The notes: generated by a model from the sequence alone, not told the origin. Counted from the stretch's first letter, positions 5,666 through 30,632 are shown. The stretch is 32,000 bases of DNA from Geobacter metallireducens GS-15 (GCF_000012925.1 NC_007517.1:1320001-1352000), one strand, 5' to 3'. Translations and numbers: made by a program.

Positions 5666-5687
5666 ACCTACCTCCTTTCGGAACCTC

Positions 5688-13958: not shown

Positions 13959-14075
13959 GCATGCCCTCCTTGGCATATCACATGTTGGCCATCGTGGTGT
14001 TATATGGCAATCGAAACGAATGTGTCCCCGCGGAGAAAGGAGGAGGGCGGGGTGGGGGAAATTCTAATTAACAAA

Positions 14076-14408: not shown

Positions 14409-15968
14409 ATGATGAAGAAAAGGTTGGAACGCTTCGTTTGCTCGCTGTTTATGGTCGTGCTCATGGCGGGATATGGCAATGCCGGGATGATGACAGCTTC
14501 GGCCGCTGGGACTGCTCCCTATAAGGAGGGGGAGTTGATCGTGAAGTACCGGGAGGGAGTTTCCGAGGAAGGGAAGGCGGAGGGGCACCGCAGGCACGGC
14601 TCGGAGAGGAAGAAGGAATTCCGTGACCTCAACATGGAGCAGGTGAAGATCAGACCGGGCCTCGGCGTGGAGAATGCCGTAAAAGAGTTCGAGGCGGACG
14701 ACGATGTGGAGTATGCGGAGCCGAACTATCTGCTGAAGGCCTCGAAAATTCCCACCGACCCGAAGTTCTACAGCACCTGGGGAATGGCGAAGATCAATGC
14801 CCCGGCGGCCTGGGACAATACCACGGGGAGTGCCGGGGTCGTGGTGGCCGTGATCGACAGCGGCGTCGACTACAACCACCCGGACCTAAAGGCCAACATG
14901 TGGATCAACCAGGCGGAACTGAATGGCAAACCGGGAATCGATGACGACGGGGATGGCGTGGTGGACGATATCTACGGGTACAACGGCGTAAACAACAACG
15001 GCAACCCCATGGACAACAACGGTCACGGCACCCACGTGGCCGGCACTATCGGGGCGGTCGGCAATAACGGCATCGGCGTGGCCGGGGTCAACTGGACAGT
15101 CAAGATCATGGCCTGCAAATTCCTGGATGCAAACGGCTCCGGCTACACCTCCGATGCCATTGAGTGTCTACAGTACGTCAAGAAGATGAAATCCCGCGGG
15201 GTGAACATCGTCGCCACCAATAACAGCTGGGGGGGCGGAGGCTATTCGCGGGCGCTCTACGACACCATCAACAGCCAGCGGGATATCCTCTTCATTACCG
15301 CCGCCGGCAACGCCGCTGCCAACAACGACACGACCCCGAGTTATCCCGCGGACTACAACCTGCCGAACATCATCGCTGTTGCCGCCACCACGTCGACGGA
15401 CGGCTTAGCCTCGTTCTCCAATTACGGCCGCCGGACCGTCATGGTGGGAGCGCCCGGGTACTCCATTCTGAGCACCTATCCCAACAACCAGTACGCCTAC
15501 CTCTCCGGCACCTCTATGGCGACCCCCCACGTCACCGGCCTGGCCGCGCTCATCAAGGCCAAGTATCCGACCATGGACTGGCGGGGGATCAAAAACCTCA
15601 TCCTTTCCGGCGGCGACCGCCCGTCGTCGCTGGCCGCCAAGACTGTCACCGGCCGGCGTATCGACGCCTTCGGCTCTCTCACCTGCGTCGACAGCCGCGT
15701 CTTCTCCGCTCTGACATATCCAGCCACCCTCCAGCCTGGTGTGGCAACGACGCTTTCCGCCCTGAGCATCAACTGCTCAAAGCCTGCCGGACCTGTCACG
15801 GTCTCCCTCAGCACCGGTGGGGTCTTGACCATGCGCGATGACGGTGTCTACCCCGATCTGGCAGCAGGGGATGGGATATTCACCGGCTCGTGGACCCCCA
15901 CCGGTACCGCCGAAACCCTCAACTTTTCATCGCCCGTCGGTGCCGAGACAGTAACCGTCGGCAAGTAA
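14409..15968 (+). CDS. Secreted subtilisin-like serine protease (peptidase S8) with an I9-type propeptide
   Basis: The catalytic triad motifs are VAVIDSGVDYNHPDL (Asp), HGTHVAGTIGA (His) and GTSMATPHVTGLAAL (Ser), with the oxyanion Asn in NNSWGG. There is a signal peptide (MMKKRLERFVCSLFMVVLMAGYGNA) and a propeptide-like segment (YKEGELIVKYREG...VEYAEPNY). The RBS is AGGGGAGGA, 5 nt upstream. Confidence 0.9.
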   Translation: MMKKRLERFVCSLFMVVLMAGYGNAGMMTASAAGTAPYKEGELIVKYREGVSEEGKAEGHRRHGSERKKEFRDLNMEQVKIRPGLGVENAVKEFEADDDVEYAEPNYLLKASKIPTDPKFYSTWGMAKINAPAAWDNTTGSAGVVVAVIDSGVDYNHPDLKANMWINQAELNGKPGIDDDGDGVVDDIYGYNGVNNNGNPMDNNGHGTHVAGTIGAVGNNGIGVAGVNWTVKIMACKFLDANGSGYTSDAIECLQYVKKMKSRGVNIVATNNSWGGGGYSRALYDTINSQRDILFITAAGNAAANNDTTPSYPADYNLPNIIAVAATTSTDGLASFSNYGRRTVMVGAPGYSILSTYPNNQYAYLSGTSMATPHVTGLAALIKAKYPTMDWRGIKNLILSGGDRPSSLAAKTVTGRRIDAFGSLTCVDSRVFSALTYPATLQPGVATTLSALSINCSKPAGPVTVSLSTGGVLTMRDDGVYPDLAAGDGIFTGSWTPTGTAETLNFSSPVGAETVTVGK

Positions 15969-16035: not shown

Positions 16036-17790
16036 CTAGCGTACCCCCTCCCAGGTGATGTAGCTGATCTTCATGACGCCGGGGCTGGGGCCGACCGGTT
16101 CCCTGATTTTGAAGGCGGACAGGTTGCCGCGGTTGGTACGGACGCAGACGTTGGCGTTCTCCGGTATCCTTTGGATGGGGATGCGCCGCTGCGTCATCTT
16201 GACTTTCGAGCAGTTTTCATAGGTGGGTTTTTCTCGGGTGAAGCCGAGGGAAGCCCCATTGCGCGGCGTCAGGTAACGCTCCGTCTCCGTTTCCGCCTCG
16301 AACCAGATGTCCGCGTCACCGTTCTGGGCAATGCTCCCTGCATCCAGGTCAAACAGATAAGTCTGGCGAATCTCGCCCCTTCCCTGGGTGATCATCTTCC
16401 CCGCTGTGGGCTCTTCTGCCGTCCTTCCGGCGTCCGGCGGCGCGGCAACCACCAGATCCACCCGTGTCCCGCGCTTTGCCGTGGTTCCACCCCTGATCTT
16501 CTGGTCGAGGATTGTTCCGGGACGCGCCCGGGTCGTCGGTCGCCGGGTCTCGGCCCCCGGCTGCAGTCCCGCATCCACCAGCATCTTCAGGGCGCGTTGC
16601 CGGGGCTGCTTCACCACGTTGGGCACCGTCACCAGTTCCGGTTCCGGGGGCTTTACGGCTACCACCAACCTGACTTTTCTCCCCTGTGCCAGCTTCGAGC
16701 CGGCCTTGGGGGTCTGGCCGATGATCGTGCCCGGCTCTGACGTGTCGGTTTTCCGCTTTTCCACCGTTCCCACCCTCAAGCCGGCTGTTGCAAGGGCAGC
16801 CTTGGCGTCACCGAGGGTTTTCCCGGCCAGTTTCGGCACGGTGACGAGCTTCGGCGGAGGGGGCTCCTGCTGTCCGCCGGGCGGCGGTTCTTCCGGCCGT
16901 TCAGGAGGAACCGCCACGACGAGATTCACCATCGCTCCGGCGGTGACGCTCGTCTCCTCCGGCGGCTCCTGCTGAGTCACTGTCCCCGGTGGGGCTTCGG
17001 GCACAATCTGCCGCACCACCTGGGGGTGCAATCCCTTGACGCGGAGGGCCTCGACGGCCTGCTGCTCCTCCATGCCGGTAACCCGAGGCACAGTGATGGC
17101 TACCGGTTCAGTCTGCCCCTGGCCGGAAGGGGTGGTGGTGCCGGTCGTCGTAACGGGCGGCGATCCCTTGAACAGCTTGACGAAGCTGGTGCGCAACGAT
17201 TCGACGCCGGTGAAGAGCCCCGCCAGCGCCACCACGATTGCGGTGATGGAGCTGATGAGCCAGGCGAGCCGATTCTTCCGTACCGCCGGCACGGCGCCGG
17301 TACCGCCCGGCGCAGCCGCTCCGACCGTCCCCTCCAGCACCCTGCCCAGGGTATCCACCAGTTGCGCCAAGTCCGAGTCCCAGTGGGTGTCGTTGATCTC
17401 GATGGCGTTGCGGCGGGCCAGGAGCTTCAGGTCGTCGGGGAGATCCGCCTCCCCCGGCATGGCCGCATCCTGGACCAGCACCGGAACCACCCGGATGTTC
17501 CGCCGCAGGGCCGTCCCCACTTCCAGGCGGATGAAATCCCGGGGGTCGTCCAGGCGACGCCGGCCCGCCGCGTCGGTACAGTCAATCCACCGCCGGCCGA
17601 TTATTACCAGGAGCACCGCGCAGGAGCCCACGGCCCGGTCGATGGCCTCCACAAAATCAACTCCCGGCTCGATGGCGGAGACGTCCATGAAGACCCGGTC
17701 CCTGCCGAAACGTTCCCGCAGCCGGTCGTAGACCCTGCCGGCGTGGCCGGCACTCTCCTCGCGGCGGTAGCTGATGAATATGCCTTCCAT
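16036..17790 (-). CDS. TIR domain / single TM helix / three PASTA domains / beta-rich C-terminal domain protein (584 aa)
   Basis: The N-terminus is TIR_2-like: IFISYRREESAGHAGRVYDRL...VFMDVSAIEPGVDFVEAIDRAVGSCAVLLVIIGRRW...DFIRLEVGTAL. The TM helix is LAWLISSITAIVVALAGLFTGV (aa about 175-197). Three PASTA-like repeats each start with (I/V)TVP and end with LVVA (aa about 231-450, nt 16441-17100). A roughly 120-aa C-terminal domain of unknown family follows. The RBS is GGAGGAAACCACA before ATG 17790. Confidence 0.85.
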   Translation of the reverse strand: MEGIFISYRREESAGHAGRVYDRLRERFGRDRVFMDVSAIEPGVDFVEAIDRAVGSCAVLLVIIGRRWIDCTDAAGRRRLDDPRDFIRLEVGTALRRNIRVVPVLVQDAAMPGEADLPDDLKLLARRNAIEINDTHWDSDLAQLVDTLGRVLEGTVGAAAPGGTGAVPAVRKNRLAWLISSITAIVVALAGLFTGVESLRTSFVKLFKGSPPVTTTGTTTPSGQGQTEPVAITVPRVTGMEEQQAVEALRVKGLHPQVVRQIVPEAPPGTVTQQEPPEETSVTAGAMVNLVVAVPPERPEEPPPGGQQEPPPPKLVTVPKLAGKTLGDAKAALATAGLRVGTVEKRKTDTSEPGTIIGQTPKAGSKLAQGRKVRLVVAVKPPEPELVTVPNVVKQPRQRALKMLVDAGLQPGAETRRPTTRARPGTILDQKIRGGTTAKRGTRVDLVVAAPPDAGRTAEEPTAGKMITQGRGEIRQTYLFDLDAGSIAQNGDADIWFEAETETERYLTPRNGASLGFTREKPTYENCSKVKMTQRRIPIQRIPENANVCVRTNRGNLSAFKIREPVGPSPGVMKISYITWEGVR

Positions 17791-20253: not shown

Positions 20254-21609
20254 TCAACGTCTACCGCCACCCCGGGAGCCGCCGCCGGATGGCTGTCGTA
20301 TCTCGCCGCCCCGGAAGCCGCCACCGGCAGGCTGTCGTATCTCGCCACCTCTGAAGCCGCCTGAAGGCTGTCTGATCTCTCCCCCAAAACCGCCTCTGGA
20401 CCTTCCCATCGGCGGCGTACCACTCCGGATGCTCATCTCGCCGCGATTGATCGCCCGGCGCTCGAAGGTCCCTTCGCCGACCCCCCTGAAGGGGGTATCC
20501 CGCCCTGCCGGCCGCTGTACCTGTTCCCTCGGTGCCTGTATTCTCGGCGTCACCGTGGTGCCTTCCCGCCGCTCAACCGGAGCCTGCCGGACTGCTGGCC
20601 CTTGTTCCCTCTGCGGCACAACGGCCCGTTCCCTCTGTTCAGGCACGCGCCCGGCAGGCGCCTGTGTGCCCCGCAATCCCGGCCTCACTTGACCCCTGAC
20701 TGGATAGCCGCGTGTTTCCGGCCCGGCCGGTGACACCCGTGTCGGTCTCAGCCCAAAGCGTTCGCCCGTTCGTATGTCCCGATAGGCAACCCCTCTCCTG
20801 TGGACGGGGTTATGGCGCCAGACAGAGCCGCCAAGATCCCGGCTGGTATTGAAACGGTTGAACCGCCTCGTCCGGTCGAAGTCTACGTGGATACGATGGG
20901 AACGCCAGTCGCACCAGGCCCAGGAAAAAATGTTGAAGCTGAAATAGAAGGGAGGGCCGAAGGCGATGTAGCTCAGGCCGAAGGGGTAACTGGTCGGGTA
21001 ATACCAGTAGTAGGGGGGGTAGTCGGGATACCACCACGGGCCATAGATATATGACGGATCATAGACCGGCACATAGATGACTTCCGGGTCAACCGGCTCG
21101 ATCTGGATCTCTCCCTGATCCTCGACAACCTTCTGCTGGCTGGTTGTCTTGAGATTCCCCTGCTGCTCGGCCTTCTGGCGCAATTCCTGGATGGAGGCCA
21201 TGACATCATCTTCCTGGCTCAGAAAGGCATCCCCCAGTTTTCTCGTCTGGTCGAGCTTGTCGCTCAAGGCGAAGAGAACGTCCGGAAAATGGCAGAGCGA
21301 TTTGACGCTGGGATCCCACGGCTTGTTCTGGAGGGCATTGTCCAGTTCGGTCCCTTTCAGCCCCATGTTGTCCCGCCGCCATCGCTCCGCCTCCACTAAT
21401 TCAAGCGGATACGTGGATGCCATCAGCACCTGGGCGATCAATGAATCGGGATACAGGGCGATCGGCGCAAGCATCTGAGTCAGCTCCTGCTTGCTGAACT
21501 TGGCCGCCTGATCGGCTTCCCCTTCCTGCGCCATTGTACCCACCGGCATCGCGAGCATGACGATGACGATACATGCCACCTTCAGGATAGTCATGATTGT
21601 CGCTTTCAT
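20254..21609 (-). CDS. DUF3300-family secreted protein with a Gly/Arg-rich repetitive C-terminus
   Basis: The hallmark segment is LTQMLAPIALYPDSLIAQVLMASTYPLELVEAERW (family recalled from memory), with a signal peptide. The preferred start is ATG 21609 (MKATIM), with GAGGAGAGCTT upstream. Confidence 0.8.
   Translation of the reverse strand: MKATIMTILKVACIVIVMLAMPVGTMAQEGEADQAAKFSKQELTQMLAPIALYPDSLIAQVLMASTYPLELVEAERWRRDNMGLKGTELDNALQNKPWDPSVKSLCHFPDVLFALSDKLDQTRKLGDAFLSQEDDVMASIQELRQKAEQQGNLKTTSQQKVVEDQGEIQIEPVDPEVIYVPVYDPSYIYGPWWYPDYPPYYWYYPTSYPFGLSYIAFGPPFYFSFNIFSWAWCDWRSHRIHVDFDRTRRFNRFNTSRDLGGSVWRHNPVHRRGVAYRDIRTGERFGLRPTRVSPAGPETRGYPVRGQVRPGLRGTQAPAGRVPEQRERAVVPQREQGPAVRQAPVERREGTTVTPRIQAPREQVQRPAGRDTPFRGVGEGTFERRAINRGEMSIRSGTPPMGRSRGGFGGEIRQPSGGFRGGEIRQPAGGGFRGGEIRQPSGGGSRGGGRR
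20270..20395 (-). repeat. Three imperfect tandem coding repeats (about 36-40 nt) encoding GGEIRQP(S/A)GG(G)FR units
   Basis: GGCTGTCGTATCTCGCC recurs at about 20291 and 20331, and a variant, GGCTGTCTGATCTCTCC, occurs at about 20366. The translation is GGEIRQPSGGFRGGEIRQPAGGGFRGGEIRQPSGGGSRGG. Confidence 0.6.
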
Positions 21610-21652: not shown

Positions 21653-24600
21653 TCACGGCGGGCCGGCGTTACCGCGTTCCGTCACTACCGCCTCATACCC
21701 CTTGCGGACCCACATGGCGTTGCTCCCGATGTTCAGCTTCTCCAGACCAGGCGGCGGATCCACTCCCGGGTCGAGGGGGTGGAGCTGCAGTGCCTCCTCC
21801 CCTTTTTCCGTCAGGGCCGTTTCCAGCTCCCACCCCACCCATTTGGACTCGCTGGCGCTCTTGGACCAGAAGAGGAGGAAAAGGTCCCGCTCCCTGATCT
21901 CGTTGTCGAGGCGCGGCTTGAACTCTTCCCCGGGGTTCAGGTCGAGGCAGTCCTGGAAGACATCGATGCCCGCCGCGATCTTGATGGCGTCCACCCGGTC
22001 CAGGACCCGGAGCCGGTCCTTTGAGGAGTAGGAGGCGAAGGCGGTTTTTGCCGGCTCGCCGCTGGCGGTGGCGACTCTCTTCCTCTTCGGCGCGGCGGTT
22101 ATCTCCAGGTCGAGCCGCAGGCGCGCCACGATGATCCCCTCAATGGCCACATCGAACTTGAGGGGGATGGTCCCTTCCTCGGCGCCCTTGGGCACGGTCA
22201 CGTCGAACTCCAGGAGGGACCGCCCCCCCTGCCAGGTGAATTCCTGCTCGGGAGGATCGACGGTGAGCCCCCGGCCCGAAAGCTTGACGGTGACGCGGGT
22301 ATCCCGCTTCCAGCGGCACTCCTGGATGCCGAGCACCGGCTCGGCGGAGGGGGCCAGTTTCGTGAGGAGATCCTGGACCTCCTGCTCCAGGGCCTTTTCG
22401 TAGGCCACGAACCGGGCGGTGAACTCGCTCCCCGGTTTCGCCTGCCGGGGGGCCGAGGCGCCGAGTTGGACTGGCTGCAGCTCTTCGGCCGCATCCGGCA
22501 CGGTGCCGGACATTTTGGGCGCAGGTGCCGGCGGAGGCCCTCCCCCGACGGTTGGAGGAGGCTCGGCTCCGACAGGTGATGGCTCCCCTTGTGACGGCTC
22601 TGATAGCTCAAGTTTTTTCAGCCGGAGGGGGCGGCCGAGAGTAATAGTTGCGTGTGTGTCCACGGATCGCATGTCGTCGGGAGTGAAACGAGCCACTGAA
22701 CCGCCCGCCCGCATCGTCACTATGTCGACTGGCCCGATCCCGCGTTTCTCGTCACCGCTTCCCGCTGCTTCCGCCCCCTCCCGGATTTCCTGCAGGGCCG
22801 CCACGAGCCCCTGTCTTTCGAGATCTTGCGGTACCGATGAGAGTACGTTCTTGAGAAACGCCAGCTGGTCCAGCACCGACTGGAACTGCCGAGGCGATCC
22901 CACATTCTTCGCCCTGGCGTAGTCGTCGATTATGTCCCCGGTATAATCGGCCAGATCCCCGGCGGCCAGGTGCCTGAGGAGGAGACAGTCCACCGGCGTG
23001 GCCGTGTTCCAGAAATCGGGGCTGGCATTGTGCTCTCCCTCCGCCAGTTCCACAGCCTTGTCCACGGCGGATTCGAAATCGGGGGGGAGTTGTTCCTCTC
23101 CGTCCAGCAGGTGGGCCAGGGTCTGGGCCGTCAGGTGATTGACAAGGGGATAGTAGGATGGTTTGCCCCGTTCGAGGCCGAGGGCGTACGCCCGGTAGTA
23201 GTGATCCGCCATGGCATGGAGGGCCGCCTGCTTTTCCGGGACTTCCGTGGCGATCATCATCCGCCGCTTGGCAACGCTCCCCAGAAGCGATAGCCGTTCC
23301 ACGGTCTCGCCCAGGGCGCTGTTCAGCCCCGTCAGCCTCTCTTCCGCCTCGGTGACGAGGTGAAGCGCCTTGGCCGGGTCTGTGGCGGCCAGTTCCTGGG
23401 CCCACCGGGACTGCAGGTTCCAGAGCTGTTCCGCTGTTTTGATGGTGGCAAGCCCCTTGTCGTCGTCGGTGGCCCTCCGGTAGTGATCCACCGCCTCCGC
23501 AAACTGCTTCAGCTCGCCGTAGGCCCGCCCCAGCGCCTCCTGGAGAGTACCGCAGGCGAGCCAGGCCGGCGGAACGCTCTGCTCGATGCCCCGGATGGCC
23601 TTCAGGTGCGCGTCAGCGGCCGGTCCCCGGGAGGTCTTTGCCGCCGCGGCGATGTTCTCAAGGTCGACGATCGCCTCGGAGATTGCGGTGTAGGAGATTC
23701 CGCGGCTGCGGGGAACAGTGGCGCCGTCCCCTTTGCCGAGGGTGAAGTCGGGGTCGCCGTAGCACTGGTAGGCGCCCCACGTGTTAGCTTCGGGGTGGGC
23801 GGCGTAGGTGGCGATGCGGGCCGCGAGCACTGCCTGGCCGAAGGTGCTGCCGGTCAGCATCCCCCGGTAGAACGTGGCGGCAAAGAGGGACGCCGCATCG
23901 TCCTGCACGGCCCAGCCGGCGGCCACCACTCCCCGTACCCCCATCCGGATCAGTTCGGTGGCCACGTTGGCGGCCAGGTTCGGCAGGTTGCGGGGGGGAT
24001 TCCGGTCGTCGATCTTCCCCAGGTGGCAGCAGTTGACGAATACCAGTTGCGGCACCGTGCGCATCTGCCGGATCTGGGCCGCCGTCAGGAACTGGTTCTC
24101 GCCGATGACCATGCCGGTGACGGGGTTCCCCTCGGTCTGCTGGTGGCAGGAGCCGCACGGCACCGGCGGGCGGTAGTCCAGCACGCCGTGCCCGGCCAGG
24201 TGGACGATCCGGTAATCCCGGGCAAAGAGCTCGGTCATGATGGCCGGCCCCGTGGCATCGGAGCCGATGAGGGGGGTTATGGTGTATCCGTAGTTCTTGA
24301 GGGATTTCTCCACCTCCCGGGCCTCCTGCTCGGCAGCGGGGAGGTTGGTGAAGGGGGTGGTGGGGTTGCCGATGACCAAGGCCGTTGCCTCCCGTGCCAT
24401 CACCACCTGTTCGCGGAACCGTTCCACCAGGAGCTGCCGCACCATCCCGGCCTGGACGGCCAGGGGCTTTTCGGCCCGGGCGGTGCTGTCACCCCGCCTG
24501 CGCTCCTGCATCATTTCCCACGGATAGCGGGCCGCCGTGTCGTTCAGCACCAGCACCATGTCCCGGCGGTCAAGGGTGTACTCCTTCAGCTCGTTGGGGA

Positions 24601-27600
24601 CCAGCATCTCGAAGAGGGTCACGGCAACCCCTTCTTCACTGGCGGTGGTTTCCGACATCTCTTCTATGAACCGGTCGGCCAGGCTCCGCTGGGACTGCTG
24701 CAGGTAGACCTCGGCCCGGGCCCGGTCGGTGAGGAGGTTGAAGGAGAGTCGCTCCTCCTCGTCCTCGGTGATCTGGAGCCGCTGCCACCAGGGGTCCTCC
24801 TCGAAGAAGCTGGCCCGGCGCATCCCTCCTTCCAGGGGGATGACAAGGGGGGTGGCGTCGATGTCAAAGGCCCGGGAGATGTCCGGGTCGCTGCGCAACC
24901 GCGCAAGGGTTCTGGCTGCCTGTATGGCCCGGTCCTCGTACAATTCCACGAACTCCACCTCTTCGATTGGGGCGCAGTCGGCGCGGCCCGAATCGGCGAT
25001 GGCGTGGTTGGCGTCGATGATCCCCCGGAGTATGGCGGTCACCGCGTCCTGCACCGAGACGCCGCCGGCGCCGGTTCCAACGAGGAGTGCGCTGATGCCG
25101 GCGGGGCCGGGCGTGCCGCTCCTGACCGGGAGGCATTCGGCCCGCGCGACGGAATAGGCCCGCGCTCCGCGGGAGACGGCCCGCAAGAGCTGTCCCGGGG
25201 AGAGCTCACCCACGCTGCCGAGGCCAATGACGATGGCTCCGGCCGGCTTGCCGTCATTTCGTTGCGACTCCTCCCACGAGAGGTTCAGGAACACCTCGGC
25301 AGTGCCGTCGGCCCCGGGGTATACCCCGAGCTTGTGCCGTGCGCTCAGCCGGCCGTCGAGGGTCCGGTCCAGGTAGGCCTCGGCGCTGATGATGGTGTCA
25401 CCCTTGTAGTGCCCCACCAGGACCGGGTGGCCGGCAAAGGCCAGGTTTCCGTGGCGGACGCTGATCTGAATCTTGCGTTCGGTGCGGCGGGGCCGCTTCG
25501 CGCGTCCGGCCCCTACCGCGGTCCGGGCCAGGTCGGTGAAGTCGGGGTAGAGGGGCTCCTTCTCCGCCGGAAGCTCGAAACGTTCAGGCACGCCGCGGGT
25601 TTCGGGCGGGGCCGTCGGCAGTAGGTCGGTGGTGCCGCGCCGCAAGAGGTCGGTTATAGCGTCGAACCCCTCCTCGGCGCTCGGAAGGTCGCCGTGGGAG
25701 GCCTGCAGGTACCAGGCCTTGACCCCGTCCGGAATGCCGCCCTCCCACGGCACCCTGCCGTCGCCCCGGGGGGTGGCGTGGAAGACCAGCCGCTTCTTCT
25801 CCCCCGTATCCTCGATGGTCAGGTCCACCGGCGTGGCCGGCGCACAGCCGGCGATGTAGAGCATCCGCTGCGGGTCGATGGGGGAGGCGGCCAACTTCTG
25901 CCGGTTGGCGCGGGCCGCTGCCAGCGCGGCGGCGGTGGGGGGCTGCCAGGTGTCGTTTTCCGGGTCGGCGTCCGCCAGGTTCTGCCACGCCCCGGCATCG
26001 AAGAGGTCGAAGCTGGACAGGGCGGGGAGCATCTCCAGGAGGCCGGGAAACTGCGCCACGATGCTGATCAGTTCCCGCTTTCTGCGGGTTATGTCCAGCA
26101 GGGCCAGCTTGCGGATGAGGCTGTCGCGCCCGGTCAGTACCTGGGTCACCGCATGGGAGCCGCCGTTGGGGGTGCCGAGCATGATGAGGCGCGCATCGGC
26201 ACGTTCCTTCATCCGCTCCCACACCTCAGGCCGGGCCACGATCATGGCCCGGGCCACGAGTCCTCCCATGGAGTGGGCCACGATGCTCACCGGCTGTCTG
26301 TTTTTCTCGGTGGCGTCCAGGGCTTTGGTGATGGCGTCGGCGAGGCGGTTCGCCTCATCGAAGAGCGAGAGCCGCCAGTCGAAGGGGAAGGGCTCCACCC
26401 GGTGGGTTATCGCCAGGTGTTTCACCAGGTCGCCGTAGAAGAGCCAGATGGGAGCGTCCGGTTTCACCAGGTTCGGCGTACCGTAGCTCAGGAGCTGCAA
26501 TTTCCCCCGGGCAATGTCGAAGGGATCGAGCCAGATCCGGTTCTCGTCGATGGCCAGGTGGCTCCCCATGATTCCGGGCAGCACGAAGACCACCGGCGCC
26601 ATGTCGGCCACGTCCCGCTTCTCGTAGGGGGGGGTGCCGCTGTCGGTGGCCCGCACCGAAAACGTTTCGAACCCGTCCGCTTCCGAGCCGCTCCGGGAGA
26701 GGGTCCGGGCGAGGCCGTCGGCGCTGTCGGCGTTCTCGAAGTAGCTGAAGTGGTTCACATCGGGCCCGCGCCGGAAGATGAATCCGGACCCGCCGGACCG
26801 CTCACAGCCGCCGAACATGGCCTCGGTGTTCACCACCAGATCGTTGTCGTCCTGGTAGAGGGGGTCTGTCAGGAGAGTGCCGATGGCGCTCAGGACGTTG
26901 CCCCCCTCGATATCCCCGGCGATCACCCGCAGCTCCCCGGCAACGGGGGCCTTGGGCCTGTTCAGGAGCGCCACCAGGGGTGAGGAGGGGATCATGGCCT
27001 CGATTCCCGGCAGCACCGTGGGGTCGGTCCGCTCCTTGGCCACGGCCATGATCAGCTCGCTGAAGATGCTGGTGAAGATCCCGCCGGGAAGCTGGGCAAC
27101 AAAGCCGTACCCCTCCAGGAGGTTGAAGAGGACCGACAGGTAGATGTCGAGCCGCTCCGACGCAAGGGTGGTCCCCCGGGCGGGGCAGGCCACCCGCACG
27201 AATCGCTCGATCTTGAACTGCTTCTCCTTGAGGAGGGTGTTGAGGCGCTCCAGGTCTCCCCGTGCCTTGTCGGGGTTGCGTTCGGCGAAGAACGTCAGGT
27301 CGGCATCGTCGAAGGGGTCGCGCCCCCCCTCCATGCCGGACCGGCAGAGGAGTTCCCCAACCATCCCCCCCCGGGAGTGGGAGACCAGGTGGAGCCGCGC
27401 CCCGGCCGGCAACCGCTCGGCAGCGGCAATGGCGTTGTCGATGGGGTTCTTGGAGAGGGTTTCGTGCTCCAGGCCGAAGACCCGCCCCTCGTAGGGGGTG
27501 AGGAGCTGTTGCCGCTGGGGGCGGCGCTTGTCGGTCCAGAGCTTGCCGAAGCTCCCCGTCGTGGACGAGGCGGTGCCGTGGAGAAAGAGGAGCGACGGGC

Positions 27601-28132
27601 GGTCCGCCGGGAGGTCGAGCACCGCTTCGGAAACCGGCGTGATCGCCAGCTCGTCTCCCGGTAGGAACCGGTGGAGCCCGGGGCCTCGGTTCTCATCCTT
27701 TGTGCCGAGGAGATGGTTCTCCAGCTTCTCCGCGATGAAGCGGGCCGCGTCCGCCGCCACGTCGATGTTGAAGAACTTCAGGGTCTTGATGACGATCTTG
27801 CCGATGAGCCCCCGCGAGGCGCCCCGCCGTTCGATGGCGGCCGGCAGCTCCACCACCCCGTCCGCCCCTCTGGTGCCGGCCAGGCCGAGCAACTCGGTCC
27901 GCAGCCGCTCCTGGGAGGTCCAGAACCGGGTCCCGTCTTCCAGCTCCACCTCCACGATGTCGTCGGGGCGGCTCTCGATCACCGGCGTCTCCGTCCCCCC
28001 GGACCGCGCCGCGCTGATCTGGAAGGTGCGCACCTCTTTGATGGTGATCTGGCCGGTGGTTCCGGGGGGGAGCGGTCCCGTGATTTCCGTGCCGGGGATG
28101 CGGAGTTTGATGGTGGATTTATCTTCGGCCAT
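21653..28132 (-). CDS. Giant multidomain protein (2159 aa): N-terminal unknown domain, alpha/beta-hydrolase, LCAT-like lipase/acyltransferase, CHAT caspase-like protease, helical region, beta-sandwich, C-terminal TIR
   Basis: Domains read from the translation (approximate aa and nt):
- aa 175-470 (nt 26723-27610): alpha/beta hydrolase, LLFLHGTASS...LHLVSHSRGGMVG, nucleophile-elbow Ser about 253.
- aa 510-830 (nt 25643-26605): LCAT/PGAP1-like lipase, VFVLPGIMGS...PFPFDWRLS...VSIVAHSMGGLVARA.
- aa 1245-1465 (nt 23738-24400): CHAT, with the His/Cys dyad in RIVHLAGHGV and LVFVNCCHLG.
- aa 1480-1790: helical, TPR-like region.
- aa 1845-1875: Pro-rich linker.
- aa 1885-2012: beta-sandwich.
- aa 2028-2125 (nt 21758-22051): TIR, AFASYSSKDRLRVLDRV...LFLLFWSKSASESKWVGWELETAL.
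The RBS is GGAGGGAAATACC before ATG 28132. Confidence 0.9.
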   Translation of the reverse strand: MAEDKSTIKLRIPGTEITGPLPPGTTGQITIKEVRTFQISAARSGGTETPVIESRPDDIVEVELEDGTRFWTSQERLRTELLGLAGTRGADGVVELPAAIERRGASRGLIGKIVIKTLKFFNIDVAADAARFIAEKLENHLLGTKDENRGPGLHRFLPGDELAITPVSEAVLDLPADRPSLLFLHGTASSTTGSFGKLWTDKRRPQRQQLLTPYEGRVFGLEHETLSKNPIDNAIAAAERLPAGARLHLVSHSRGGMVGELLCRSGMEGGRDPFDDADLTFFAERNPDKARGDLERLNTLLKEKQFKIERFVRVACPARGTTLASERLDIYLSVLFNLLEGYGFVAQLPGGIFTSIFSELIMAVAKERTDPTVLPGIEAMIPSSPLVALLNRPKAPVAGELRVIAGDIEGGNVLSAIGTLLTDPLYQDDNDLVVNTEAMFGGCERSGGSGFIFRRGPDVNHFSYFENADSADGLARTLSRSGSEADGFETFSVRATDSGTPPYEKRDVADMAPVVFVLPGIMGSHLAIDENRIWLDPFDIARGKLQLLSYGTPNLVKPDAPIWLFYGDLVKHLAITHRVEPFPFDWRLSLFDEANRLADAITKALDATEKNRQPVSIVAHSMGGLVARAMIVARPEVWERMKERADARLIMLGTPNGGSHAVTQVLTGRDSLIRKLALLDITRRKRELISIVAQFPGLLEMLPALSSFDLFDAGAWQNLADADPENDTWQPPTAAALAAARANRQKLAASPIDPQRMLYIAGCAPATPVDLTIEDTGEKKRLVFHATPRGDGRVPWEGGIPDGVKAWYLQASHGDLPSAEEGFDAITDLLRRGTTDLLPTAPPETRGVPERFELPAEKEPLYPDFTDLARTAVGAGRAKRPRRTERKIQISVRHGNLAFAGHPVLVGHYKGDTIISAEAYLDRTLDGRLSARHKLGVYPGADGTAEVFLNLSWEESQRNDGKPAGAIVIGLGSVGELSPGQLLRAVSRGARAYSVARAECLPVRSGTPGPAGISALLVGTGAGGVSVQDAVTAILRGIIDANHAIADSGRADCAPIEEVEFVELYEDRAIQAARTLARLRSDPDISRAFDIDATPLVIPLEGGMRRASFFEEDPWWQRLQITEDEEERLSFNLLTDRARAEVYLQQSQRSLADRFIEEMSETTASEEGVAVTLFEMLVPNELKEYTLDRRDMVLVLNDTAARYPWEMMQERRRGDSTARAEKPLAVQAGMVRQLLVERFREQVVMAREATALVIGNPTTPFTNLPAAEQEAREVEKSLKNYGYTITPLIGSDATGPAIMTELFARDYRIVHLAGHGVLDYRPPVPCGSCHQQTEGNPVTGMVIGENQFLTAAQIRQMRTVPQLVFVNCCHLGKIDDRNPPRNLPNLAANVATELIRMGVRGVVAAGWAVQDDAASLFAATFYRGMLTGSTFGQAVLAARIATYAAHPEANTWGAYQCYGDPDFTLGKGDGATVPRSRGISYTAISEAIVDLENIAAAAKTSRGPAADAHLKAIRGIEQSVPPAWLACGTLQEALGRAYGELKQFAEAVDHYRRATDDDKGLATIKTAEQLWNLQSRWAQELAATDPAKALHLVTEAEERLTGLNSALGETVERLSLLGSVAKRRMMIATEVPEKQAALHAMADHYYRAYALGLERGKPSYYPLVNHLTAQTLAHLLDGEEQLPPDFESAVDKAVELAEGEHNASPDFWNTATPVDCLLLRHLAAGDLADYTGDIIDDYARAKNVGSPRQFQSVLDQLAFLKNVLSSVPQDLERQGLVAALQEIREGAEAAGSGDEKRGIGPVDIVTMRAGGSVARFTPDDMRSVDTHATITLGRPLRLKKLELSEPSQGEPSPVGAEPPPTVGGGPPPAPAPKMSGTVPDAAEELQPVQLGASAPRQAKPGSEFTARFVAYEKALEQEVQDLLTKLAPSAEPVLGIQECRWKRDTRVTVKLSGRGLTVDPPEQEFTWQGGRSLLEFDVTVPKGAEEGTIPLKFDVAIEGIIVARLRLDLEITAAPKRKRVATASGEPAKTAFASYSSKDRLRVLDRVDAIKIAAGIDVFQDCLDLNPGEEFKPRLDNEIRERDLFLLFWSKSASESKWVGWELETALTEKGEEALQLHPLDPGVDPPPGLEKLNIGSNAMWVRKGYEAVVTERGNAGPP

Positions 28133-28162: not shown

Positions 28163-29710
28163 TCAATTATTTCGAAGTGCTTTACGCTTTCCAATTTCCC
28201 GAGTCATGTTCTCGGCAGGGACGACGACCGATTCGTCAAAGGAGGCAAGCAGGTCTTCAATGCCCCGATATCGATGTATGTCCAGCACCCACGGATATTT
28301 GCGGAGAGTTCCAAATGTTCCGTAGGGGTTATCTCCTTCGATTATTGGCAGAACAGGCACTTCTACATCGGGAACGATTGAGCGTAGTTCATCGGGAACG
28401 CAGTGAGGCTCCGTCAGGTCGGCAATAATGAATCTGGCCATCCGTGCAAGGAGTGTAACGGTTTCCACTTCATCGAGGGACTCTGGCCGATTGAAGTCAA
28501 AGAGTACAGGTACGTAGTTGCAGGCTCTAAGCTGATCTCGCACGGCATCGAGCACCGATTTTCGCTCTGGAGAGAAACGGCCGAGGATGAGTACAATCTT
28601 CGAGGTTATAGTGTCTACAGCTCGGCGTACCTTGGCGTTATTGAGAAGCAAATAGATAAACTGGGCCATCTCGATGTCGTCTACCGTAACCTGCGGGTGG
28701 TTCAACTTAGTGACTACCAGATCCTGTTGGTCGGCATCCTCCGCGAGTACCTCCCACGGTGAAATCCCGAAGACCAAGCATCCCCTGAGGGTGGCGCGTC
28801 TCAGATCGGTGCCGACCATTAGGGCGCCCGTCAGATTTGCATTGGTGAGGTTGGCCTCCGCAAGATCGGCCATTGTGAGGTTAGATAGACTCATGTTGAC
28901 GTTGCGAAGGTCGGCCCCAGTCAGTTTCGCATTCATGAGCACAGCCCCCTGGAGATTCGTTCCTCGGAAGATAGCGTCGCGCAAATCGGCTTCCATGAGG
29001 TTCGCGAAAGCAAGTTTAGCTCCGCTGAGATCGGCGGCGATGAGTGTTGCGCTATTGAGATAGGAATTTGAGAGGTCTGCCCGGCAGAAGGATGCATGGC
29101 GGAGGCTCGCCTCGCTAAACGTTGCGCTGAGGAGGCTGGCATCGGAAAACACCGCTTCGTTGCACTCTGCCTTGAACAGGTCTGCAGTGCCCAAGTTGAT
29201 TCCTGATAGGTCAGCACCTGTGAGGATCGCGTTCCGGAACCGGGCGCCAAAGGCTTCAGCATTTCGGAACGATGCTCCTGCCAGTCGTGCACCGGTGAAA
29301 TCGGTCCCGATCATATCGGCGCGCTCAAGGTTCGCACCTTCGAGAATGCACCCTTGCATGCCGCAGCGAAGGGTTACTCCCCGAAGACTGCTGTTGCAGA
29401 AATTTGCTCCCTGGCAGTTTGCACCGAAAAGGTTGGCACCGTCCAAATCAGTGCCGGCAAGGATGGCGCCCCGCAGATTGGTCCCCATCATCCGGCAGTT
29501 GCGAAGATTTGCGTTCCCGATGTTTGACTCTGCCAGATTCGCATCGAACAGAACTGCTCCTTCAAGGGTAGCACCTGTCAGGGCGGGGCGTATTGCTGGA
29601 TTGGTCGTTCTCCAGTTGTTCCAGATTGATATGTCGCACTGTTCAACTGCCCTTAGCAGGACGCTGAGATGCTCAGTGTCGCCTGAAAATGCTGGATTGG
29701 ACGGATTCAT
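28163..29710 (-). CDS. Pentapeptide-repeat protein with an uncharacterised alpha/beta (Rossmann/flavodoxin-like, possibly TIR-like) C-terminal domain (515 aa)
   Basis: aa about 43-315 (nt 28766-29584) are continuous A(D/N)LxX pentapeptide repeats, for example ANLAESNIGNANLRNCRMMGTNLRGAILAGTDLDGANLFGANCQGANF. aa about 368-500 (nt 28211-28609) alternate beta strands and helices: KIVLILGRF-SPERKSVLDAVRDQLRACN-YVPVLFDF-...LDEVETVTLLARMA-RFIIADLT. The RBS is GAGGGAAACAAC before ATG 29710. Confidence 0.85.
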   Translation of the reverse strand: MNPSNPAFSGDTEHLSVLLRAVEQCDISIWNNWRTTNPAIRPALTGATLEGAVLFDANLAESNIGNANLRNCRMMGTNLRGAILAGTDLDGANLFGANCQGANFCNSSLRGVTLRCGMQGCILEGANLERADMIGTDFTGARLAGASFRNAEAFGARFRNAILTGADLSGINLGTADLFKAECNEAVFSDASLLSATFSEASLRHASFCRADLSNSYLNSATLIAADLSGAKLAFANLMEADLRDAIFRGTNLQGAVLMNAKLTGADLRNVNMSLSNLTMADLAEANLTNANLTGALMVGTDLRRATLRGCLVFGISPWEVLAEDADQQDLVVTKLNHPQVTVDDIEMAQFIYLLLNNAKVRRAVDTITSKIVLILGRFSPERKSVLDAVRDQLRACNYVPVLFDFNRPESLDEVETVTLLARMARFIIADLTEPHCVPDELRSIVPDVEVPVLPIIEGDNPYGTFGTLRKYPWVLDIHRYRGIEDLLASFDESVVVPAENMTREIGKRKALRNN

Positions 29711-29927: not shown

Positions 29928-30632
29928 TCAGATCTCACCCCGAAAACCCAGGAGGGAAGGGCACTCGATGGTAATCAGCCGGTCGTTGTTGGCTGAGTAT
30001 TTGACGGTGCCGTTTTGTTCGTACACATAGTACGCCGATAGCCATACTTTCTTCTTCCCCAGGTTGAACTCAATCGCCTGGGATCTGGAGTTGGCGGGTT
30101 TGGCTCCCACGCCTCCCGTTCTTTTCATCCCCGCAATGGTGACGACCAGCCCTATCCGGTAGCCGTAGCTGAGGCACAGCGCCGCATTCGCTTCCAGCCA
30201 GTGGCGGTCTCCATTGGAGATATAAAAGCCTTTATCATCTCCCCGGCGGTCGCCTTCCTCCAATTCCACCGAATAGACATCGCTGACGGATTTATAGACA
30301 TGGGTGTGGTAGTCCCCGAGATATTCGAGGTTCGGCCAGAAGGCTCCCATGATGTCCGCCTTTAGTTTCATGGCATTGGTATTCGGCGTCACTGACCGTT
30401 TGTTTCTTTTTGCCGATGTATCCACATTGGCAATCTCGATCTGGTAGAGAATCCTGTTGTCCTTCAACGGCACCTGGTAGCCGAACAGGGCGCCGCACGT
30501 CTCCAGATGGGGTGTTTTCCGTTCATGTTCAACGGAATAGGCTTCGAGTCCGTTCAGGATGAGCGTTATGAGGGCATGCTCGGACAGGCGTACCACATAA
30601 CCTGTTTTTTTCTGCAGATGTGCTGTATCCAA
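29928..30632 (-). CDS. JAB/MPN (JAMM)-like metallopeptidase domain protein (234 aa)
   Basis: It has an N-terminal Glu motif typical of JAB domains (HLETCGALFGY) and an H-x-H motif (GDYHTHV). Two candidate S-x-x-D motifs follow (SVSD and SNGD), but at non-canonical spacing. The only in-frame start is TTG 30632, with GAGGT 5 nt upstream. There is no internal ATG until aa 88. Confidence 0.7.
   Translation of the reverse strand: MDTAHLQKKTGYVVRLSEHALITLILNGLEAYSVEHERKTPHLETCGALFGYQVPLKDNRILYQIEIANVDTSAKRNKRSVTPNTNAMKLKADIMGAFWPNLEYLGDYHTHVYKSVSDVYSVELEEGDRRGDDKGFYISNGDRHWLEANAALCLSYGYRIGLVVTIAGMKRTGGVGAKPANSRSQAIEFNLGKKKVWLSAYYVYEQNGTVKYSANNDRLITIECPSLLGFRGEI

Follow-up and report, generated by a model that had tools for sequence, protein, structure and literature searches.

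Thoeris anti-phage systems are the closest described counterparts of the protein analysed here, especially type IV, which pairs a TIR protein with the caspase-like ThsE, type II, with its Macro effector, and type VIII, with the TPR-containing ThsI. In type IV, N7-cADPR made by the TIR protein activates the caspase-like effector (bioRxiv 10.1101/2024.10.24.620036); in type II, His-ADPR is bound by the Macro domain of the effector, and in type VIII the TPR domain of ThsI is proposed as the perceiver of cADPR (bioRxiv 10.64898/2025.12.03.692087). Further points of comparison are the CHAT immune modules, namely Craspase TPR-CHAT (Csx29, type III-E) and the type III-B SAVED-CHAT, which cleaves and activates PCaspase (bioRxiv 10.1101/2023.06.23.546230), and the NTP-dependent conflict systems, in which a caspase and an alpha/beta hydrolase are obligately paired (Kaur, Burroughs, Iyer, Aravind, eLife 2020, PMC7159879).

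The window, a stretch of 32,000 nucleotides from Geobacter metallireducens GS-15, encodes a giant protein that we consider, at roughly even odds, to be related in logic to Thoeris. As in Thoeris, the TIR protein has an effector partner bearing putative ADPR-ligand-binding folds (Macro, TPR), a caspase-fold protease stands in the output, and relatives of the giant protein have a separate, adjacent TIR gene. Unlike Thoeris, the TIR is here fused to the effector, a core of ~1800 aa that combines CHAT, instead of the ThsE caspase, with two alpha/beta hydrolases, a Macro-like domain and TPR-S and has no match to the PADLOC or NCBIfam Thoeris effector models; most members of the core family also have no TIR nearby, and the signal molecule is only postulated in the present case. 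Like Csx29 and SAVED-CHAT with PCaspase, the protein couples CHAT to a helical-repeat or ligand-sensing domain, and as in the latter pair the core is often accompanied by a second caspase-fold protease, a possible CHAT substrate. It differs from these modules in that its locus lacks CRISPR-Cas genes and repeat arrays, in that Macro-like and TPR-S domains, and not SAVED, are the putative ligand sensors, and in its fused lipase-like domains; its TPR-S lies C-terminal to CHAT, whereas the TPR of Csx29 is N-terminal. With the NTP-dependent conflict systems it shares the company of a caspase-superfamily peptidase and an alpha/beta hydrolase, as well as the partner domains TIR, TPR, patatin and STAND; unlike them, it has no vWA-MoxR, iSTAND, GTPase or EACC1 component at its locus, and one chain holds both hydrolases and protease, plus the Macro-like and TPR-S domains.

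Domains of the giant protein

The preliminary description had read a single uninterrupted ORF carrying four enzymatic modules, and both statements hold: the frame runs on the minus strand from ATG to stop over 2159 codons, and profile searches recover DUF7379, LCAT/PGAP1/DUF676, CHAT and TIR_2, all scoring higher than the curated Pfam cut-offs. All the motifs quoted there are found (SHSRGG, FDWR, AHSMGG, HLAGHG, VNCCHLG, GWELETAL), with catalytic residues that are intact and invariant or nearly so, as scored over 68-121 homologues. The protein is predicted to be cytoplasmic; sequence inspection and a hydropathy scan found no signal peptide or TM-like segment, the peak 19-residue average (1.6) falling on a buried hydrolase strand. 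The features, in positions of the window, are:

28163..29710, minus strand: pentapeptide-repeat protein, 515 aa, upstream neighbour of the giant ORF, gap 30 nt (Pfam Pentapeptide, E 5e-58)
21653..28132, minus strand: whole ORF, 2159 aa plus stop codon
27608..28132, minus strand: N-terminal domain, residues 1-175, beta-rich with two helices, common to the whole family
26633..27607, minus strand: alpha/beta hydrolase 1, residues ~176-500 (Pfam DUF7379, E 7.6e-36)
25493..26620, minus strand: alpha/beta hydrolase 2, LCAT/PGAP1/DUF676-like, residues ~505-880 (Pfam)
24638..25480, minus strand: Macro-fold domain (~885-1090) and beta-hairpin 'wing' (~1090-1165) (AF2 and Foldseek)
23738..24637, minus strand: CHAT caspase-like cysteine protease, residues ~1166-1465 (Pfam CHAT, E 1.9e-30)
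22763..23737, minus strand: helical TPR-S region, residues ~1466-1790 (Pfam TPR-S at 1544-1668)
22481..22762, minus strand: linker, residues ~1791-1884 (alignment occupancy, sequence)
22088..22480, minus strand: beta-rich module, residues ~1885-2015, presumed beta-sandwich, invariably accompanying TIR
21728..22060, minus strand: TIR domain, residues ~2025-2135 (Pfam TIR_2, E 5.9e-11)

For the N-terminal stretch, earlier described as unrecognised, residues 1-175 match no model in Pfam, NCBIfam or PADLOC, and a Foldseek search of PDB and BFVD with the AF2 model (pLDDT 74.5) gives no match (best E 0.17-0.6, TM <=0.2). G14, G67 and R107 are invariant. Since neither structure database offers a comparable fold, a sensing or adaptor role for this stretch is speculation, although together with TPR-S it is the fastest-evolving and least conserved part of the core.

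Hydrolase 1 displays an HG oxyanion motif (H185-G186), the nucleophile S253 in SHSRGG (residues 251-256; codon 27374-27376) and the candidate triad partners D431 and H461, with S253, R254, G255, G256, D431 and H461 invariant in both the 68-sequence and the 121-sequence sets. In hydrolase 2, where Pfam LCAT, PGAP1 and DUF676 all match residues 580-690 (E ~1e-7, above cut-off), FDWR lies at 584-587, the nucleophile S621 sits in AHSMGG (619-624; codon 26270-26272), and the candidate partners are D791 (in GDG) and H813, this triad being invariant or near-invariant in the same two sets. Its DWR (585-587), GHSxGG-type nucleophile elbow and GDG Asp motif are those of LCAT, PLA2G15 and PGAP1, and the family profile matches lysosomal phospholipase A2 (4x90, E 2e-5) and LCAT (E 9e-4) structures in the PDB; however, alignment with the 392-position LCAT profile is confined to its central ~90 residues, and the cap and lid bear no relation to those of LCAT, PLA2G15 and PGAP1. 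Both hydrolases are predicted to act on lipids. The plant route from TIR to EDS1/PAD4/SAG101 immunity is a conceptual parallel only, in which a TIR enzyme is coupled to lipase-fold proteins. EDS1-family lipase domains are receptors that are not known to need catalysis, whereas both hydrolase triads are invariant in the giant protein family.

The middle region of ~350 aa, previously left as unknown, is indeed present, but it contains a Macro-fold domain. Its AF2 model (pLDDT 78 overall, >85 in the first ~205 residues, with a poorly modelled 'wing') retrieves macroH2A1.1, PARP14 macro1, YmdB, MacroD2 and the M17 aminopeptidase N-domain from the PDB by Foldseek with probability 1.0 and target-normalised TM of 0.6-0.69. 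In this model, conserved glycine-rich loops (GHY 907-909, GLG 970-972, GTGAGG 1019-1024) lie along the C-terminal edge of the sheet. The Pfam Macro model does not match the region, the closest relative in sequence is Peptidase_M17_N (a weak signal), and on our reading the canonical adenine/ADP-ribose-contacting Asp is not kept; we know of no report of ADP-ribose binding by the M17 aminopeptidase N-domain. Among the 150 matches listed, CHAT is always accompanied by the Macro-like domain where length or match position permits. Very short entries among these 150 resemble fragments.

The CHAT region, which also matches Pfam Peptidase_C14 and Peptidase_C25, has its catalytic H1315 in HLAGHG (1311-1316; codon 24188-24190) and C1369, next to C1368, in VNCCHLG (1366-1372; codon 24026-24028); H1311, H1315 and G1316 are invariant, and N1367, C1368 and C1369 are kept in 120 of 121 sequences. 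The helical region of ~300 aa reported earlier is Pfam TPR-S (E 2.2e-14; score 54 bits, cut-off 27.6), with TPR matches in the PDB profile search; compared pairwise with the TPR-S parts of neighbouring 650-aa proteins, it shows no similarity. Sensing of NAD-derived signals by TPR-S is reportedly proposed by Burroughs and Aravind (2020) and is a hypothesis in the 2025 preprint (bioRxiv 10.64898/2025.12.03.692087).

The linker shows the Pro-rich stretch noted before, at ~1846-1875, and an insert at ~1803-1832 that is missing from nearly all aligned homologues. The beta-rich module that follows has no Pfam match and no PDB sequence match, and its alternating hydrophobic pattern alone suggests a beta-sandwich. 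The TIR domain carries the catalytic E2102 in WVGWE (GWELETAL at 2100-2107; codon 21827-21829), invariant in all 22 TIR-bearing homologues, and is matched by the PADLOC ThsB and SAVED_TIR models, the only PADLOC matches of the giant protein. A profile search of the PDB retrieves TIRs: E2102 aligns with the WVKKE Glu of the top match, 9m0n, a TIR-TPR protein of solved structure, and further matches include AbTIR, which is annotated 'NAD(+) hydrolase', and TIR-APAZ chains of SPARTA.

A core family and a separable TIR cassette

The giant protein consists of two evolutionary units, the core (1-1790; N-domain, two alpha/beta hydrolases, Macro-like domain, CHAT and TPR-S) and the beta-rich plus TIR cassette (1885-2135). 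The four modules formerly called an unusual chain are present, but they are not a unique stack: the core belongs to a family found in at least 594 species genomes of many phyla, with a patchy distribution and some plasmid-borne members, mostly without TIR and then ending with the TPR-S region. NCBIfam has no model for this family, PADLOC no match to it, and full-text literature searches returned no paper on it; it is uncharacterised. Likewise, the TIR is part of one chain here but elsewhere forms, with the beta-rich module, a separate cassette: stand-alone proteins of 270-490 aa with varying N-termini cover 90-98% of it at 50-71% identity and adjoin a TIR-less core gene in all three cases with readable long contigs, in the order TIR, C14, core (L092 and L174) or core followed 14 nt later by TIR (L175). 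Further arrangements occur at L102, L104 and L105. Across ~73 TIR-less genome loci, a separate TIR gene lies within 10 kb in 15, frequently directly downstream; in the majority of the family TIR is absent both in cis and from the inspected flanks (e.g., L010), so the core must function TIR-free or with a TIR encoded elsewhere.

Other partners recur around the core. A same-strand C14/C11 caspase-fold gene ends <400 nt upstream in 26 of 68 loci (~40%). Neighbours of 1436-1543 aa at L029, L037, L044 and L047 contain a C14/C11 domain (by Pfam at L029 and L044, by phmmer at all four) and, judging from FYAHGG and GHSAG motifs read by eye with no profile match, a putative alpha/beta-hydrolase part. 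Orthologues at L006 and L008 are surrounded by nSTAND1, patatin, C11, TIR, SIR2 and TPR-S genes, and SLATT is also counted among the conflict-type partners. Short forms (~880-940 aa) with only the Macro-like, CHAT and TPR-S domains exist as separate genes, one preceded by a MACPF pore-former gene (L171) and another flanked by two large TIR proteins (L176); covalent linkage to the hydrolases is therefore unnecessary, and these contexts suggest that effectors have been exchanged around a sensor-protease unit that stays the same.

In the window, no C14 or C11 gene adjoins the giant ORF. The upstream pentapeptide-repeat gene has a GC of 0.54, compared with 0.67 in the giant ORF, and the C-terminal ~150 aa of its product have no domain assignment. 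It is found at L001-L005 and absent from L006 and L008, so that its conservation is limited to the nearest Geobacter relatives; its product is a possible partner of the giant protein, and in one protein (P0212) pentapeptide repeats are fused to the same beta-rich plus TIR cassette.

Competing readings and a proposed mechanism

We assign a probability of about 0.5 to the reading that the ORF is a self-contained, abortive-infection-type immune protein, a fused Thoeris-like system in which a TIR-made signal would act through the core and its hydrolases to kill the cell. A tentative and clearly less probable alternative, in line with the preliminary description, holds that the chain carries four parallel effectors, with TPR-S or the N-domain recognising a phage component, lipid, protein and NAD+ destroyed together, and CHAT autoprocessing perhaps releasing the modules. 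Four intact catalytic centres would fit, as would the AbTIR and SPARTA matches of the cassette, some bacterial TIR proteins being NAD+-depleting effectors; TPR arrays often bind proteins, and rapid evolution of the N-domain and TPR-S is expected of target-recognising surfaces. Yet most of the family dispenses with TIR, and where a TIR is present it acts like ThsB, the sensor-producer, as a partner protein in its own right whose N-terminus varies; the Macro-fold domain is left without explanation, and the split forms make module release from one chain unnecessary. We favour the TIR as signal generator and partner over a fourth, NAD+-destroying effector because it pairs with an effector bearing ligand-binding folds. 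More doubtful still is a protease cascade free of nucleotide signalling, in which the core is a sensor or initiator protease for a separate executioner (C14/C11, MACPF), the Macro-like domain is structural, e.g., a pseudo-enzyme scaffold for CHAT, and the hydrolases are regulators or anchors. The upstream C14/C11 and MACPF genes, the PCaspase precedent, the constant pairing of CHAT with the Macro-like domain in all assessable listed matches and its missing ADP-ribose-contacting Asp speak for this; however, two hydrolase triads invariant across phyla point to catalysis over scaffolding, the giant ORF of the window, like many of its homologues, lacks an adjoining caspase gene, and the repeated TIR partnership is unaccounted for.

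It appears improbable that the protein is instead non-immune, whether it regulates membrane lipids and proteolysis for housekeeping or development in Geobacter or is a toxin destined for delivery to other cells. The downstream genes in the window (DUF3300, DUF2950, multihaem cytochrome) are non-defence genes, and some homologues lie among metabolic (L010) or cell-shape genes; but where mrdA/rodA lie on one side and mreD/mreC on the other, the genes look as if inserted as an island, the window has no secretion-system gene near an ORF that also lacks export signals, and the patchy, partly plasmid-borne spread, the conflict-type partners (TIR, caspase, patatin, SIR2, nSTAND, SLATT, MACPF) and a GC3 of 0.86 against 0.58-0.71 in adjacent genes all argue against this reading. 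Mis-assembly of several genes, raised in the preliminary description, or a decaying pseudogene is scarcely credible: beyond the unusual ORF length nothing supports it, and an identical 2159-aa protein is listed for 35 assembly-collection blocks and carried by all 23 contigs read, other Geobacter-type genomes hold collinear full-length orthologues at 55-96% identity, and the catalytic residues are invariant.

Returning to the fused Thoeris-like reading, we posit that the giant ORF arose by fusion of two partners encoded separately in other bacteria. The ThsB-like partner (beta-rich domain and TIR) would sense infection or stress and convert NAD+ to an ADP-ribose-derived signal, probably acting as a signal maker and not as a mere NAD+ depleter. 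The conserved core would perceive this signal via its Macro-fold domain and/or TPR-S repeats, either or both being candidate binding sites, and thereby activate the CHAT protease, whose predicted action is to turn on the two N-terminal Ser-Asp-His, lipase/acyltransferase-like hydrolases and, where one exists, possibly also the neighbouring C14/C11 caspase-fold protease. Membrane damage would ensue, and the infected cell would die or go dormant, which would give the giant protein a likely role in defence.

Domain architecture of the giant protein

The giant protein is encoded by a single reading frame that, as read from the sequence, runs without interruption:

21653-28132, minus strand: giant ORF of 2159 codons

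In the assembly collection, 35 indexed blocks hold an identical protein, all of the contigs that were read (23/23) carry it, and collinear orthologues are present in Geobacter grbiciae (95% identity; named 'DUF7379 domain-containing protein' by NCBI) and G. hydrogenophilus (96%). Since the same protein recurs and its orthologues are collinear, we exclude both a chance reading frame and a chimera created by assembly. The window itself stems from a Geobacter closely allied to these two species. A signal peptide or transmembrane-like segment was sought in the protein and none was found. The six motifs quoted in a preliminary description of this ORF are all where that description had placed them, and the codon coordinates of the key residues were verified. 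Its four enzymatic assignments, namely two alpha/beta hydrolases, a CHAT protease and a TIR domain, are likewise supported by Pfam matches over the curated cut-offs, by PDB matches for the second hydrolase and the TIR, and by catalytic residues that vary little or not at all when 121 and 68 homologues (41-96% identity) are aligned.

The first hydrolase (residues 181 to about 480) is recovered by DUF7379 (PF24096; 124.3 bits against a cut-off of 33, E 7.6e-36), with H185-G186, S253 (in HSRGG), D431 and H461 invariant or nearly so. The second is recovered by LCAT (PF02450; 31.8 bits against a cut-off of 21) over only positions 88-178 of the 392 in that profile; PGAP1 and DUF676 match the same residues 580-690, with E about 1e-7 for all three, and a family profile searched against the PDB matches lysosomal phospholipase A2 (LPLA2) and LCAT. 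Here, D585-W586-R587, S621 (in HSMGG), G790-D791-G792 and H813 are invariant or nearly so; S621 aligns to the LCAT profile, and the invariant D791 and H813 fall outside the aligned profile region. From their family resemblance, both hydrolases are predicted to act on lipid. The CHAT domain (residues 1170-1460) is matched at positions 4-289 of the 289 in its profile (PF12770; 106.8 bits against a cut-off of 24, E 1.9e-30) and displays a dyad in which H1315-G1316 is invariant and both C1368 and C1369 are kept in 120/121 sequences. The TIR domain (residues 2032-2120) is recovered by TIR_2 (PF13676; 43.4 bits against a cut-off of 28, E 5.9e-11) and by the PADLOC ThsB and SAVED_TIR models, and a profile of the C-terminal 284 residues matches solved TIRs, including 9m0n (TIR-TPR), 4lzp, AbTIR, Cat1 and the SPARTA TIR-APAZ. 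In the alignment to the top match, 9m0n, E2102 of WVGWE falls on the Glu of WVKKE, and this candidate catalytic residue is invariant in 22/22 TIR-bearing homologues. Judged by the profile scores, we count the giant protein as a genuine member of four Pfam families (CHAT, TIR_2, TPR-S and DUF7379) and as a peripheral member of the LCAT/PGAP1 group.

The middle domain, left as unknown in the preliminary description, is predicted to adopt a Macro-like fold. A model of residues 885-1170 built with a 28-sequence alignment has a mean pLDDT of 78 (over 85 across roughly the first 205 residues), and a Foldseek search of the PDB aligns it over about 200 columns (probability 1.0, target-normalised TM 0.6-0.69) with macroH2A1.1, the first macro domain of PARP14, E. 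coli YmdB, MacroD2 and the M17 aminopeptidase N-domain, which belongs to the Macro clan. The Pfam Macro model gives no match to the giant protein at E up to 1; a weak Peptidase_M17_N signal is present in the middle domain (Pfam E 0.027; PDB 3jru E 0.016), and we know of no report of ADPR binding by the M17 N-domain. Gly-rich loops are conserved after the central strands (GHY 907-909, GLG 970-972 and GTGAGG 1019-1024), and Macro domains hold ADP-ribose at the position of such loops. As read from the sequence alone, the conserved GTGAGG resembles Macro loop 2, and there is no conserved Asp at the position expected for the adenine-contacting Asp of Macro domains. Ligand binding by this domain is plausible.

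The roughly 300-aa helical region of the preliminary description can now be identified as a member of the TPR-S family (PF20308; residues 1544-1668; 54.3 bits against a cut-off of 27.6, E 2.2e-14). TPR-S and its sensor role were reportedly described by Burroughs and Aravind in 2020, the likely source; our search of the literature on TPR-S and DUF7379 found no usable paper. Pairwise BLAST detected no similarity between the TPR-S region of the giant protein and that of a neighbouring 656-aa protein, and the predicted relationship to the TPR-S domains of neighbours runs through the Pfam profile only. The N-terminal residues 1-182 give a beta-rich model of moderate confidence (pLDDT 74.5) without a significant match in the PDB and BFVD. 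The beta-rich stretch that precedes the TIR (1885-2015), a putative beta-sandwich, has no Pfam or PDB sequence match.

The core family and the TIR cassette

Most relatives of the giant protein are 1750-1930 aa long, end near its residue 1790 and lack the linker, beta-rich module and TIR that follow. They display a core in the order N-domain, hydrolase 1, hydrolase 2, Macro-like, CHAT and TPR-S, which we found in at least 594 species genomes spread over Desulfobacterota, Beta- and Gammaproteobacteria, Acidobacteriota, Nitrospirota, Chloroflexota, Verrucomicrobiota, Bacteroidota, Actinomycetota, Binatia and Methylomirabilota. With the Macro-like profile alone, 1766 clusters (50% identity) are recovered, and 1034 of these have an E of up to 1e-30. 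Core members are also carried on plasmids of Paracoccus yeei, Azotobacter, Ensifer, Burkholderia and Rhizobium, where they are annotated simply as 'CHAT domain-containing protein' or 'hypothetical protein'. Short forms of about 880-940 aa, which are complete genes, comprise the Macro-like, CHAT and TPR-S domains alone (two of them, P0266 and P0308, lie on short contigs). One of 906 aa is encoded downstream of a MACPF pore former, in an island that also carries SLATT, patatin and resolvase genes (L171, 4893-9721), and a conjugative Rhizobium plasmid carries another of 936 aa, flanked by TIR proteins of 1322 and 1473 aa (L176, 2002-15892). Because the short forms stand as separate genes beside MACPF or TIR genes, these three domains are suggested to be a constant sensor-protease unit, with an exchangeable membrane-directed effector (lipases versus MACPF).

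The C-terminal cassette (beta-rich module and TIR, residues 1885-2135) has a wider life of its own. Residues 1876-2159 searched alone returned 446 proteins, mostly free-standing ones of 270-490 aa annotated as 'TIR domain-containing', which cover 90-98% of the cassette at 50-71% identity, with variable N-termini that include HU, HTH and pentapeptide repeats. All 3 of the free-standing cassette proteins on readable long contigs adjoin a TIR-less core gene. In L092 and L174, the order is TIR protein, Peptidase_C14 and a core of about 1921 aa, and the operon sits between mrdA/rodA and mreD/mreC; in L175, the TIR protein lies 14 nt downstream of a 1759-aa core. Three metagenome contigs add a patatin-cassette fusion followed by C14 and then the core (L102), a core followed by the cassette (L104) and the reverse of the latter order (L105). 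Fused proteins show much stronger conservation in the cassette than in the core, as measured by identity to the giant protein: 80-83% against 30-50% in P0053, and 85-89% against 40-63% in P0021 and P0022. Either the cassette has been exchanged more recently or it is under tighter constraint, and this mosaic conservation suggests cassette exchange or independent fusions. No other evidence for joint action of the TIR cassette and the core is as strong as this pattern of fusion and fission.

Genomic context

The genes surrounding the giant ORF in the window are as follows:

29928-30632, minus strand: 234-aa protein with a weak Prok-JAB match just under the Pfam cut-off and matches to PADLOC JAB models (E 4e-5)
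28163-29710, minus strand: pentapeptide-repeat protein, 515 aa, 30 nt upstream of the giant ORF
Downstream of the giant ORF: DUF3300, DUF2950 and multihaem cytochrome genes
16036-17790, minus strand: TIR-PASTA protein, 584 aa, with an N-terminal TIR_2 and three PASTA domains
14409-15968, plus strand: subtilase S8 with a fervidolysin-type prodomain, matching the PADLOC candidate-defence 'subtilase' model (E 5e-24)
9456-13976, minus strand: 1506-aa ORF with GC3 of 0.89-0.90, like the giant ORF
5688-9443, minus strand: 1251-aa ORF adjacent to the 1506-aa ORF, GC3 0.89-0.90
4703-6268, minus strand: 521-aa ORF without a family match, whose same-strand overlap with the 3' end of the 1251-aa ORF spans about 580 nt

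The pentapeptide-repeat gene was rejected as a general partner, being absent from the 80 related genome loci and from L006 and L008; the C-terminal about 150 aa of its product (motif RFIIADLTEP) have no PDB match. In P0212, an unrelated protein, pentapeptide repeats are fused directly to the same beta-rich and TIR cassette, which hints at a link between such repeats and the TIR module. The DUF3300, DUF2950 and cytochrome genes, common to the closest relatives only, were also rejected as partners. A 39-bp tandem repeat (about 2.5 copies, 86% matches) lies at 20265-20379, at the end of the DUF3300 ORF and the start of the longest DUF2950 ORF. Promoter-like sites are present at 29791-29764 and 28194-28166, and no terminator-like site was found between the three genes at the giant ORF locus. 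The TIR-PASTA protein, a second TIR protein about 4 kb downstream of the giant ORF, matches the PADLOC PD-T4-6 and ThsB models; core genes in L013, L026, L047 and L070 also have similar TIR proteins nearby, and the subtilase adjoins the TIR-PASTA gene in L001-L005 too. The 1506- and 1251-aa ORFs, which have no Pfam, NCBIfam, PADLOC or PDB sequence match, may be further island genes; a few kb away from the orthologue, L005 and L006 too encode a protein of about 1500 aa that carries no annotation. For the overlapping 521- and 1251-aa ORFs, one start site or reading frame is probably not real.

The giant ORF has a GC of 0.67 and a GC3 of 0.86, as against 0.54 and 0.58 for the pentapeptide gene and 0.61 and 0.71 for DUF3300, and the contrast in GC3 with these immediate neighbours is compatible with horizontal acquisition. 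A phage origin was rejected, with no tblastn match in 50,697 phage records, and no tRNA-flanked island was found around the giant ORF.

Across 80 surveyed genome loci, a same-strand Peptidase_C14 or C11 gene ends less than 400 nt upstream of the core gene in 26 of the 68 that have at least 1 kb of upstream flank. Four further loci feature neighbours of 1436-1543 aa with a C14 or C11 domain (L029 15485-19795; L037 15342-19823; L044 5268-9899; L047 5347-9975), comprising an N-terminal half without assignment, a putative alpha/beta hydrolase, which was read from FYAHGG and GHSAG and has no Pfam match, and a C-terminal C14/C11 peptidase. From this layout, we regard them as a putative second giant hydrolase-caspase family beside the first. 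Another TIR gene is found within 10 kb, often directly downstream, at 15 TIR-less loci; in about 15 loci, a protein of 650-700 aa combines a TIR-like domain with TPR-S, and five have a CBASS-like patatin phospholipase. Orthologues at 57-75% identity occur in islands with nSTAND1, C11, patatin, TIR, SIR2 and TIR-AAA-TPR genes, and other core members are solitary amid metabolic genes.

Relation to known defence systems and a proposed mechanism

In Thoeris, the TIR protein detects infection and responds with an ADPR-derived signal, an effector binds this signal and kills or arrests the cell, and 29 putative types have been put forward (bioRxiv 10.64898/2025.12.03.692087). The pairing of a TIR with an effector gene is found as a fusion in the giant ORF and as separate neighbours in L092, L174, L175, L104 and L105. 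In its predicted working, the giant protein is closest to a Thoeris system, and it joins a caspase feature like that of type IV to Macro and TPR features like those of types II and VIII. The Thoeris effector models of PADLOC v2 and NCBIfam release 20 do not match the core, and PADLOC recognises the TIR alone in the giant protein. The window holds no Cas-like Pfam match or CRISPR repeat array of the kind sought for a type III-E Craspase (TPR-CHAT/Csx29, gRAMP/Cas7-11), the giant ORF locus has no vWA-MoxR or STAND core, and our search of the literature on CHAT, lipase and TIR in combination found no description of the core family. As judged by the PADLOC v2 and NCBIfam release 20 models and by locus context, the giant protein lies outside the named defence systems that were compared.

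We consider it likely that the giant protein is a conflict or immune system. Tentatively (with a probability of about 0.35), we posit that it represents an unrecognised single-chain Thoeris-like type, in which a TIR generator is fused to a receptor-effector that would read an NAD+-derived signal through its divergent Macro and/or TPR-S domain, with CHAT licensing two lipases, and that the TIR-less core (>1000 clusters at 50% identity) is a widespread orphan receptor for ADPR-type immune signals. From domain identities, residue conservation and gene linkage, we infer the following functional steps: the TIR cassette would make the signal, the Macro-like and/or TPR-S domain would sense it, CHAT would then be activated, and active CHAT would license the two hydrolases, plus the C14 or C11 protease where present, with membrane damage and cell death as the outcome. 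We propose this mechanism because the domain pieces match the logic of Thoeris and each step has a precedent. Thus, TIR-made N7-cADPR activates a caspase-like protease (bioRxiv 10.1101/2024.10.24.620036); the Macro domain of the type II effector receives His-ADPR, and perception of cADPR has been proposed for the TPR domain of ThsI, the type VIII effector (bioRxiv 10.64898/2025.12.03.692087); a CHAT protease activates a second caspase-fold protease (bioRxiv 10.1101/2023.06.23.546230); and caspases and alpha/beta hydrolases co-occur obligately in conflict systems (PMC7159879).

The specific order of signalling is the less secure part, and we put it at slightly under even odds. Its main rival is the picture of the preliminary description, in which the TIR would serve as a co-effector that depletes NAD+. 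A weak point of the proposal is that most family members have no TIR in view. A Macro sensor is favoured by the predicted fold and the conserved Gly-rich loops, yet the closest sequence relative of this domain is the M17 N-domain of the Macro clan; for a TPR-S sensor, the weak point is the lack of pairwise similarity to the TPR-S of neighbouring proteins.

If the single-chain Thoeris-like reading is true, TIR signalling, caspase-type proteolysis and membrane killing by lipases would be joined in one bacterial pathway. Its confirmation would add to the bacterial TIR-signalling and caspase-like immune systems a large and phylogenetically broad family (found in no fewer than 594 species genomes and forming some 1000-1800 clusters at 50% identity) whose core is at present annotated merely as 'CHAT domain-containing' or 'DUF7379' proteins. 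It would also provide, fused in one natural chain, the signal producer, the receptor, the protease and the executioner enzymes, each open to dissection by point mutation. Caspase-type proteolysis would then control lipases, with the short forms pairing the same sensor-protease unit with MACPF, in an echo of the eukaryotic caspase-gasdermin and TIR-to-lipase-like (EDS1) logic, and the divergent Macro fold beside CHAT may represent a novel receptor class for ADPR signals.
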